Source: Escherichia coli
Lineage (GTDB): Bacteria > Pseudomonadota > Gammaproteobacteria > Enterobacterales > Enterobacteriaceae
DNA length: 1,859 nt
Direction: 5' to 3' (one strand)
Assembly: GCF_003334815.1 (NCBI RefSeq)
Contig: NZ_QOWO01000091.1
The first letter of the stretch is position 1, and the number at the start of each line of letters is the position of its first letter. The position numbers were made by a program, and so were the translations under genes. Positions 709 to 762 of the stretch are shown in pieces. The notes under the pieces are model-generated. The model did no database searches and had not been told where the DNA came from. It was given only the letters and a program-made list of their open reading frames with translations.

Positions 709-726
709 CCCCCGCTCCGGCGGGGG
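709..726 (+). other. GC-only hairpin 7 nt after the ardA stop; possible 3' stabilising stem-loop or weak terminator
   Basis: CCCCCGC (709..715) pairs perfectly with GCGGGGG (720..726) around loop TCCG: a 7-bp all-G:C stem. It is followed by TATGGCC, not a T-tract, so it is not a canonical intrinsic terminator. Confidence 0.3.
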
Positions 727-730
727 TATG

Positions 731-762
731 GCCTGCCAGGCCGCCGGAAAACCCTGGCAGGC
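731..762. repeat. Perfect 10-bp inverted repeat with 12-nt spacer
   Basis: GCCTGCCAGG (731..740) and CCTGGCAGGC (753..762) are exact reverse complements, separated by CCGCCGGAAAAC. Confidence 0.7.

Follow-up and report, generated by a model that had tools for sequence, protein, structure and literature searches.

Positions 709 to 821 of the window (the whole stretch of Escherichia coli DNA analyzed here, 1,859 nt long) are, to judge from sequence comparison, one copy of a conserved three-hairpin module of ~115 nt that follows the stop codon of the anti-restriction gene ardA. We propose, with a probability of roughly one in three, that this module is a boundary element, which would end or release the anti-restriction transcript on a single-stranded template and cap its 3′ end. 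A cluster of stem-loops at the end of an operon is a familiar kind of element. What appears to be new is the fixed three-part architecture, the stacking of an invariant hairpin on a covarying one, and the restriction to anti-restriction operons of plasmid leading regions.

Genomic context of the module

With 100% identity to NZ_CP043828 and 99.6% to ColIb-P9 (NC_002122 33904-35762), the window represents leading-region DNA of an IncI1-type conjugative plasmid. It opens with the 3′ part of a class 2 ssDNA promoter (1-194, plus strand, truncated by the window start) which, based on sequence homology, drives ardA; this part is 96% identical to the region preceding the klcA-type gene both in ColIb-P9 (26267-26461) and in F (L006 8554-8748). 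The promoters of ardA and klcA belong to one class (“class 2” ssDNA promoters), whose start sites were mapped by 5′ RACE (PMC12672017). The ardA coding sequence (202-702, plus strand, 166 codons, TGA at 700-702) is present in the ORF listing and annotated in both LC567091 and NC_002122, and the next annotated gene is ygcA, with its ATG at 1431. Between the two genes, the module is followed by a T-rich spacer (834-868, plus strand, AT skew of about -0.7, GC skew of ~0) and by a class 1 ssDNA promoter repeat (884-1381, plus strand), for which the name ssi2 is used after PMC10104558 and which comprises a conserved block at 884-1055 and a 328-nt Frpo-like core at 1056-1381. Positions 884-1377 are 90% identical to ColIb-P9 27754-28251, the ssb-upstream repeat. 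A third repeat, located near oriT (ColIb-P9 37850-38178), is matched by the core as well, and the minus strand DNA of ssi2 folds with a z-score of -9.1. It is ssi2 that, as far as homology indicates, drives the downstream ORF (ATG at 1431).

In the gene order, ardA and the genes downstream of it are oriented toward oriT/nikA. Given the orientation rule for leading-region genes with respect to the transferred strand (PMC11541004), the template is the T-strand, that is, the minus strand of the window. In the IncI1 plasmid pESBL, 5′ RACE start sites define six leading-region operons, each with its own ssDNA promoter (PMC12672017). Since one ssDNA-promoted unit ends upstream of the hairpins and the next promoter lies downstream of them, the hairpins sit between two units. 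The original prediction had transcription from ardA possibly reading through toward the downstream ORF; considering that the pESBL leading operons each own a promoter, such read-through would not be needed for the expression of this ORF.

Structure of the module

Two strong hairpins had been predicted just after the ardA stop, and both stems are perfect in the inverted-repeat listing. Hairpin 1 (H1, 709-726) begins 6 nt past the stop codon and pairs CCCCCGC (709-715) with GCGGGGG (720-726) over 7 bp, with the 4-nt loop TCCG, while the second hairpin (H2, 731-762) pairs unit a′ (731-740) with unit a″ (753-762) over 10 bp (GCCTGCCAGG/CCTGGCAGGC) around a 12-nt loop; eight of its pairs are G-C and two A-T, thus it is not all G-C. 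The high stability attributed to both is seen in the RNA folds (-17.0 and -21.2 kcal/mol, z-scores of -3.1 and -2.7, respectively). Across the spacer (703-1431), eight perfect stems of at least 7 bp are present versus 1.17 expected, a number reached by none of 1,000 dinucleotide shuffles, as well as two of at least 10 bp versus 0.024 expected in the 1,000 shuffles. Both hairpins are supported as conserved structured elements, far beyond chance palindromes. No T-run stands behind either stem, and the consensus scan gave no terminator-like site between 700 and 900, so that neither is a canonical intrinsic terminator. Of the earlier interpretation as a whole, the distinction from canonical terminators is supported, and the suggested membership in the single-strand structure element is not supported as it was put, as the Frpo/ssi repeat starts only at 884 and 731-807 form a separate homology block. 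Three pairings had been overlooked, namely 756-762 with 767-773, which uses the 3′ arm of the 10-bp stem, the hairpin at 780-815, and an 8-bp alternative in which 716-723 are able to pair with 741-748. The plus strand RNA of 703-825 folds at -72.8 kcal/mol (z-score of -4.7). A small ORF or ribosome binding site inside the module was also considered and discarded, being not conserved, and so was a group II intron target at the module, as the intron in L004 lies ~180 nt further on and on the opposite strand.

The first of the overlooked pairings forms Hp-II (756-773, GGCAGGC-TTAC-GCCTGCC), a 7-bp hairpin with an RNA energy of -14.6 kcal/mol and a z-score of -4.4. All copies have the form GGCAGGC-N3-4-GCCTGCC, with the conserved stretch GCCCGCGCGAAAAC before it. 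In the metagenome scan, for which the search pattern ended at GGCAGGC, the 3′ arm GCCTGCC stood 3-4 nt further on in every true copy, and Hp-II is also found at seven of eight ardA loci picked without reference to the hairpin. Across lineages, the stem is invariant and is closed by 11 different loop sequences. The preceding unpaired segment (741-752, CCGCCGGAAAAC in the window and CCGCGCGAAAAC in most lineages) serves both as the H2 loop and as the flank on the 5′ side of Hp-II, and its columns are invariant or near-invariant in the alignment of 19 lineages (A3).

H2, on the other hand, is not maintained as the unit that had been predicted. In close variants, its loop-proximal pair 738-755 appears as A-T, G.T, G.A, or a deletion/C, and a G735A change also occurs, whereas Hp-II never changes. 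Its 5′ arm (unit a′) is missing in Kpn L005, in L066, and in L122, and in Klebsiella FII plasmids unit a″ reads CCGGGCAGGC, which leaves an uncompensated A.G mismatch. H2 is the minimum-energy choice in the plus strand RNA, but not in the minus strand DNA. Because of the arm losses and unmaintained pairs as opposed to the constant Hp-II, we conclude that the maintained structures are H1, Hp-II, and H3 (see below), with H2 as an alternative fold whose significance is uncertain.

The hairpin upstream of Hp-II depends on the operon. In IncI and IncK ardA copies it is H1, and in the klcA-operon and many ardA copies it is GGCAGGCGG-loop-CCGCCTGTC, formed by units a and a′. H1 accompanies ardA and in the mRNA sense has the loop cUCCGg, a UNCG-type tetraloop. 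In L020, whose ardA coding sequence is 83% identical, it has an additional outer G-C pair and an inner T.G, and it is kept in IncK/IncI-gamma variants, in pPE13096 with a compensating 1-nt deletion in each arm. The IncN ardA (60% amino acid identity) has the same H1 stem with the loop AAC (TCCCCCGC-AAC-GCGGGGGA); no module follows there, and a long palindrome comes next after H1.

That the sequence of Hp-II and of the flank 5′ to it (GCCCGCGCGAAAACCCTGGCAGGC-N3-4-GCCTGCCGG) is so strictly invariant counts against the boundary reading, being unexplained by a purely structural role and suggesting recognition by a factor. The module could then be a binding site for a host or plasmid protein, with GGCAGGC as half-site recognized in the hairpin or in duplex palindromes, and would regulate leading-region expression or processing. 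The near invariance of this segment where ardA itself is only 53-68% identical is in agreement with such a site, as is the presence of up to four alternating GGCAGGC/GCCTGCC units in some copies. However, no candidate protein is known, the spacing of the half-sites varies (3 or 4 nt), the first unit pair is absent in several lineages, and H3 covaries as pure structure, so we consider a protein site improbable.

Covariation in the third hairpin

The third hairpin (Hp-III, or H3) spans 774-821, with its core at 780-815, the apex GCGCC-TGC-GGCGC, an RNA energy of -30.3 kcal/mol, and a z-score of -4.7. It corrects the earlier statement that the T-rich tract is not preceded by an obvious stem, since the hairpin at 780-815 ends only 19 nt upstream of this tract, a gap which is still too long for an intrinsic terminator. 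In all sequence types, H3 is 40-48 nt long and begins 0-1 nt 3′ of Hp-II, and the apex is usually GCGCC-TGC-GGCGC. The outer and middle stems vary by lineage, yet remain complementary: the outer stem is GCAGGAGGG/CCCTTCCTGC in the window (IncI ardA), GGAAA/TTTCC in the copy at the ColIb-P9 klcA operon, GGAAGGG/CCCTTCC in F, GGTGAGG/CCTCACC in the Klebsiella klcA copy (L005) and in L122, GGTCACAC/GTGTGAC in L066, GGAGAG/CTCTCC in Klebsiella FII, and GGCGG/CCGCC in Erwinia and others.

RNAalifold on the plain MAFFT alignment of 19 lineages missed the outer stem of H3, with the 3′ halves being misaligned, and a crude cross-pairing matrix was too noisy in such G+C-rich sequence (diagonal of 6.5 versus 5.2 off-diagonal). 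An alignment of a same-length subgroup and a covariance model were used in their place. Eight copies of the same length, aligned by MAFFT without gaps, have 92.9% of the cells paired and five pairs with changes on both sides, at a covariation score of 0.165 versus 0.066 in shuffles (0 of 500 shuffles); sliding the partners lowers pairing to 29-55%. In the model-fitted alignment of 29 distinct sequences, which favors the model by construction, 94.1% are paired and 19 of 23 pairs changed on both sides (0 of 500 shuffles), and with the partners slid by one to three columns pairing is 34-51%, versus 94% in register. The covariance model of Hp-II, H3, and the 5′ flank (R1) matches the window at 739-818 on the plus strand (48.6 bits, E-value of 3.7e-7) and recovers all other copies of the module, with no further matches in the rest of ColIb-P9, the chance-hit control loci, or the phage G4 origin.

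Given the invariance of the Hp-II stem with its 11 loops and the covariation in H3, the structure appears to be under selection. It is conceivable that the module has no selected function and is a recombination scar or a hitch-hiking junction spread by the exchange of leading-region cassettes, considering that homology breakpoints lie at or near it: F-type and IncI-type copies diverge after ~70 nt, and L069 differs upstream of 729. Nevertheless, H3 and H1 show compensatory changes, Hp-II stays constant while the loops vary freely, and plasmid families whose ardA is 53-68% identical have retained the module, all of which makes this highly improbable.

Distribution and position at operon ends

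About 50 distinct copies were compared, and the module is present in IncI, IncK, IncF, and Klebsiella FII plasmids, Y. pestis pMT, and plasmids of Erwinia and Pantoea. Pattern scans, which covered one-genome-per-species and metagenome collections, gave diverged copies from Yersinia, Erwinia, Pantoea, Klebsiella, and other Enterobacteriaceae. The ardA-type copy is found in 2455 records. In ColIb-P9, a paralogue of window positions 731-807 is present at 27574-27650 (86% identity), directly past the stop codon of the final klcA-operon gene and ~100 nt before the repeat upstream of ssb; at least 5000 plasmid records, F included, contain its first 70 nt at 97-100% identity. In ColIb-P9, two different anti-restriction operons thus each have their own copy of the promoter (window 1-194) and of the 3′ module (731-807).

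In 18 lineages, the first hairpin lies 4-14 nt past the stop codon of the last ORF, this being ardA, a 63-aa ORF, or klcA. In an unbiased tblastn sample of eight ardA homologues (53-61% amino acid identity), seven have the module at the operon end and the eighth, from IncN, keeps H1. Downstream, IncI and F have a T-rich spacer and then a class 1 promoter, with comparable T/C-rich tracts of F found after H3, upstream of Frpo2 and Frpo1. A weaker H3-like copy with a long pyrimidine tract is also observed in F upstream of Frpo1. Plasmids of Klebsiella, Enterobacter, Leclercia, and Citrobacter have a holE-like gene within 50-100 nt of the module and no Frpo, and no sigma-70-like promoter was found between H3 and the holE-like gene in the Klebsiella- and Enterobacter-type plasmids. 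Since the module is present without Frpo, it belongs to the anti-restriction unit, at its 3′ end, rather than to the Frpo repeat, and since the holE-like gene follows closely after H3 without a visible promoter, the module cannot act as a complete terminator everywhere.

Known families did not account for the module. Rfam gave no match up to an E-value of 1 in the window and, for ColIb-P9 23000-40000, only a sub-threshold chance match elsewhere (rli61, 29.7 bits versus a gathering score of 50 bits), and BLAST against phages gave no match to the module. No description of the module was found in the leading-region literature consulted, in which promoters are treated and operon ends are not, and no literature linking pCol1B9 with ardA was found.

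Evidence for the acting strand

A palindrome can fold in the T-strand as well as in the mRNA, and several measures do not separate the two. Wobbles on the model alignment are symmetric in the deep lineages (14 G.T versus 10 A.C), the mean plus-minus difference in fold energy is -0.5 kcal/mol, favoring neither strand, and the G.U pairs (160 versus 111) were counted on non-independent sequences, so no strand signal was drawn from them. The loops do differ between strands. On the minus strand (T-strand), seven of the 11 Hp-II loops and five of the seven H3 apical loops are of the G..A type closed by C-G (GAA, GCA, GTA, GGA, GTAA, GTCA, GCCA, and GAAA are seen), versus none on the plus strand. Mini-hairpins with GNA/GNNA loops are reported to be unusually stable in DNA and poorly bound by SSB (PMC13037366). 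Moreover, among close variants, three independent G-to-A changes in the H3 stems (780, 791, and 805) give T.G on the minus strand and A.C on the plus strand, and with DNA parameters the minus strand folds as H1′, Hp-II′, and H3′. Because of these loops, changes, and folds, and of the cUCCGg loop of H1, we lean toward the conserved Hp-II and H3 acting in the single-stranded template and H1 acting in RNA, with none of these signals being decisive.

This evidence bears on the alternative, in line with the original suggestion of 3′ stabilizers or processing sites, in which the module would act in RNA only: transcription would read through, and the mRNA hairpins would block 3′-to-5′ exonucleases or serve processing, thereby stabilizing the upstream cistrons. 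G+C-rich hairpins without a U-tract right behind a stop codon, their location between cistrons without a visible promoter in Klebsiella-type plasmids, the UNCG-type loop of H1 in the RNA sense, the stable plus strand RNA fold, and the unstructured T-rich tract that comes next in IncI and F are all in line with it. However, the loops of Hp-II and H3 resemble no known RNA motif but, read on the opposite strand, agree with stable DNA loops, the recent substitutions in H3 break RNA pairs where the T-strand pairs survive, and a stabilizer has no need of an invariant stem sequence. The T-rich tract, with its GC skew of ~0, also lacks the C>G skew typical of a Rho loading site, and such a site was discarded as a candidate. 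We regard an RNA-only element as unlikely, although a stabilizer or processing site is still a serious rival. An antisense terminator on the minus strand was also rejected, as the TTTT lies 4-5 nt past Hp-II′ or within the H2′ loop, a non-canonical arrangement.

If the hairpins do fold in the T-strand, they could act on DNA synthesis instead of transcription. One option is a roadblock to synthesis of the complementary strand, for which ssp2 is a precedent and which would be consistent with the stable hairpins, the GNA/GNNA loops on the T-strand, and the location upstream of class 1 promoters in IncI and F. The conversion times in F that flank the module and Frpo2 are nevertheless alike, with 162 s for yfgB (upstream) and 155 s for psiA (downstream), and 94 s versus 108 s after deletion of ssp2; these are literature timings, not of the module itself, and reveal no extra delay from yfgB to psiA at 30-s resolution (bioRxiv 10.64898/2026.01.09.698686). 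Moreover, the stems are short (7-20 bp) beside those of ssp2, and a roadblock leaves the linkage to stop codons unexplained, so this option is distinctly unlikely.

The opposite option is a single-strand initiation site of the G4 type, dependent on primase, at which synthesis of the complementary strand would be primed on the T-strand. Three hairpins lie within ~115 nt of the template strand, Hp-II on this strand reads GCGNAGC or GCGNNAGC in most lineages (GCGAAAGC in L066), like hairpin I of G4 (PMC13037366), and a CTG is found 3′ of it in most lineages. This CTG, however, is 16-17 nt from the hairpin versus 2-3 nt in G4 and is absent in some lineages, the order of the hairpins differs, neither model R1 on the G4 origin nor BLAST against phages gave a match, and early conversion beyond the module in F is abolished by rifampicin. 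Priming at this position would in addition convert and thereby silence the adjacent ssDNA promoter. A priming site is thus very improbable.

A possible boundary function

From the anatomy and position of the module we infer that it may fold in vivo, terminate or release transcripts, and insulate the units on its two sides. The anti-restriction transcription unit would begin at the class 2 ssDNA promoter, include ardA or the klcA operon, and end with the module. After transfer, RNA polymerase would transcribe the single-stranded T-strand (minus strand of the window) and, just beyond the stop codon, would traverse three G+C-rich palindromes, each of which could fold both as template DNA, once the polymerase has passed, and as nascent RNA. 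Such folding would resolve the RNA:DNA hybrid without a U-tract, and most transcripts would be stopped or released. The mRNA would be left with a hairpin-capped 3′ end, and polymerases would be prevented from unfolding the next ssDNA promoter (ssi2, 884-1381). H1 would be the ardA-specific first hairpin, and Hp-II (756-773) would stack on H3 (774-821). We know of no citable precedent for U-tract-independent termination on ssDNA; canonical terminators reportedly function on ssDNA templates, in work attributed to Uptain and Chamberlin (1997).

Support for the boundary reading comes from the position past stop codons, from the duplication of promoter and module in ColIb-P9, from the module at seven of eight ardA homologues, from the invariant Hp-II stem and the covariation in H3, from the loop and strand signals described above, and from the separately promoted leading operons in pESBL (PMC12672017). 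The holE-like gene close behind H3 and the wobble counts and fold energies, which favor neither strand, count against it. That stem-loops on the entering strand are able to stop a polymerase is known from ssp2 (bioRxiv 10.64898/2026.01.09.698686). In a more specific form, which we put forward tentatively and on the doubtful side, the module would be a terminator or release signal specific to ssDNA templates, with palindromes that fold in the T-strand and in the RNA and so resolve a persistent hybrid without a U-tract. It would be placed where the stripping of the mRNA driven by ribosomes ends, at the stop codon, and would free translatable anti-restriction mRNA, prevent the 3′ end of this mRNA from priming DNA synthesis, and shield the ssDNA promoter that comes next; a host factor may additionally read Hp-II.

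The ssDNA promoters and stem-loops of leading regions were recently shown to control the first minutes of plasmid establishment, governing anti-restriction, SOS inhibition, and the timing of strand conversion. The module, which several thousand clinical plasmids (IncF, IncI, IncK, and Klebsiella) carry, offers a concrete and easily mutable candidate for the signal at the operon end. Action on the single-stranded template would make it a signal of a new type, and if it is only an mRNA stabilizer, it would still explain how enough ArdA or KlcA is made from a brief burst of transcription.

Comparison with known systems

Like intrinsic terminators, the module has G+C-rich stem-loops right after the last stop codon of the operon (-17.0, -21.2, -14.6, and -30.3 kcal/mol for H1, H2, Hp-II, and H3, respectively). 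Unlike them, it has no U/T run within 0-2 nt of the stems, the tails being TATGGCC, TTACGCC, TGAAATG, and CCGTCAT. No U-tract is consistently placed across the copies, and a weak one (TGTTTGTG) follows H3 only in some F-type copies. In ColIb-P9, canonical T-run terminators stand behind psiA and behind the DUF4942 gene, at the ends of other leading operons, so that the plasmid does use canonical terminators elsewhere.

REP/BIME-type palindromes, as well as the 3′ stem-loops upstream of Rho-dependent termination sites, have no U-tract, are located after or between cistrons, and protect mRNA. The palindromes of the module share this lack of a U-tract and this location, and could likewise block 3′ exonucleases. 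In contrast to REP/BIME elements, the module is not dispersed, as the model matches are found only in leading regions at operon ends, it carries no REP consensus, and it has a fixed three-part architecture with one invariant hairpin.

With the ssDNA promoters (Frpo/ssi as class 1, and classes 2 and 3 of PMC12672017) and with ssp2, the module shares its neighborhood and structures expected on the entering T-strand. It differs in having no homology to any of the three promoter classes and no -35/-10 hexamers, in its much shorter stems (7-20 bp), and in being located at the ends of operons rather than at their starts. The complementary-strand origin of phage G4 resembles it in three template-strand hairpins (here H1′, Hp-II′, and H3′), one of them with a mini-hairpin motif of the GCGNNAGC type, but differs in the order and spacing of the hairpins and in the distance to CTG, with one hairpin of the module lying beyond CTG. 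The CUP (conserved upstream repeat) elements of IncN leading regions, reportedly described by Delver and Belogurov in 1997 as upstream promoter-bearing repeats of ~400 bp, are similar to the module in being repeated non-coding units that separate the anti-restriction genes of a leading region, whereas the module is a downstream element of ~115 nt.

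The anti-restriction cassette on its promoter side

The 194 nt that lie upstream of ardA (1-194 in the window) are a 96% copy of the stretch that, in both ColIb-P9 and F, precedes the klcA-type gene, and this stretch corresponds to the "class 2" single-stranded DNA promoter (PMC12672017). Together with the copy of the three-hairpin module at the 3′ side, this promoter copy means that the anti-restriction cassette is duplicated at both of its ends, around different genes. In ColIb-P9, a gene of the TnpB family (IS200/IS605-type, 32482-33657) is located within the leading region, between psiA and the ardA promoter, and the same arrangement is found in pCH110.

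Pairing and sites within the first two hairpins

The loop and 3′ arm of the first hairpin, H1 (716-723), can form a perfect 8-bp alternative pairing with the loop of the 10-bp hairpin, H2 (741-748). This pairing is present only in the IncI ardA version, with CCGCGCG changed to CCGCCGG, and it could make H1, H2 and Hp-II (756-773) mutually dependent, or it could have arisen by chance. Each arm of the 10-bp hairpin also carries a CCWGG (Dcm/EcoRII) site (736-740 and 753-757); the Klebsiella FII copies (CCGGG) and the variants pPE13096 and pO145_16003 have lost the 3′-arm site.

From H3 to the class-1 promoter

In IncI and in both F copies, the third hairpin, H3, is separated from the class-1 promoter repeat by a weakly structured T-rich or pyrimidine-rich tract (834-868 in the window; 15340-15470 and 9950-10020 in F, with the tract before Frpo1 ~130 nt upstream of it). 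Since its GC skew is close to 0, the window tract is unlike a typical Rho loading site. The tract is followed by a highly structured block (884-1055), outside the 328-nt Frpo-like core (1056-1381), which is kept in the ssb-upstream repeat (96%), shows weaker conservation with four loci of other plasmids (L122, L009, L066 and L005) and is missing from the third ColIb ssi repeat.

Insertions, breakpoints and assembly labels

In E. fergusonii pEF03, the module and the ygcA homologue are separated by a group II intron (4256-5923, carrying ltrA and lying on the opposite strand), which has inserted ~180 nt downstream of the module. A metagenomic contig (L069, 1-66) contains both arms of the 10-bp hairpin and Hp-II of the IncI type; H1 is absent and the sequence upstream of the position equivalent to 729 is unrelated, which indicates a recombination breakpoint separating H1 from the remainder of the module. 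F-like leading-region sequences near-identical to E. coli plasmids are also carried by contigs of assemblies labelled as Streptomyces morookaense (L007) and as an Oscillibacter MAG (L008), most likely due to contamination or mis-binning.

Comparison with other operon ends

The next operon in ColIb-P9 has, at the end of its last gene (after ygdB), a 9-bp hairpin that lacks a T-tract (37362-37385, AGCCTGGCA-TTC-TGCCAGGCT), overlaps the stop codon and has GAA as its T-strand loop. The operons that end at psiA and at the DUF4942 gene instead use conventional T-run terminators. In F, a weak covariance-model match (15273-15345, 31 bits), located 3′ of the hok/flm terminator and 5′ of Frpo1, comprises an H3-like hairpin with the same apex as H3 (GCGCC-TGC-GGCGC) and a different small hairpin in place of Hp-II. 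In the IncN plasmid NZ_CP058883 (1401-1520), H1 is retained after ardA (TCCCCCGC-AAC-GCGGGGGA) and is followed by a perfect palindrome of ~27 bp (CGGCAAGCAGCAGCAAAGGGGCGGC...), which may belong to the conserved upstream repeat (CUP) of IncN.
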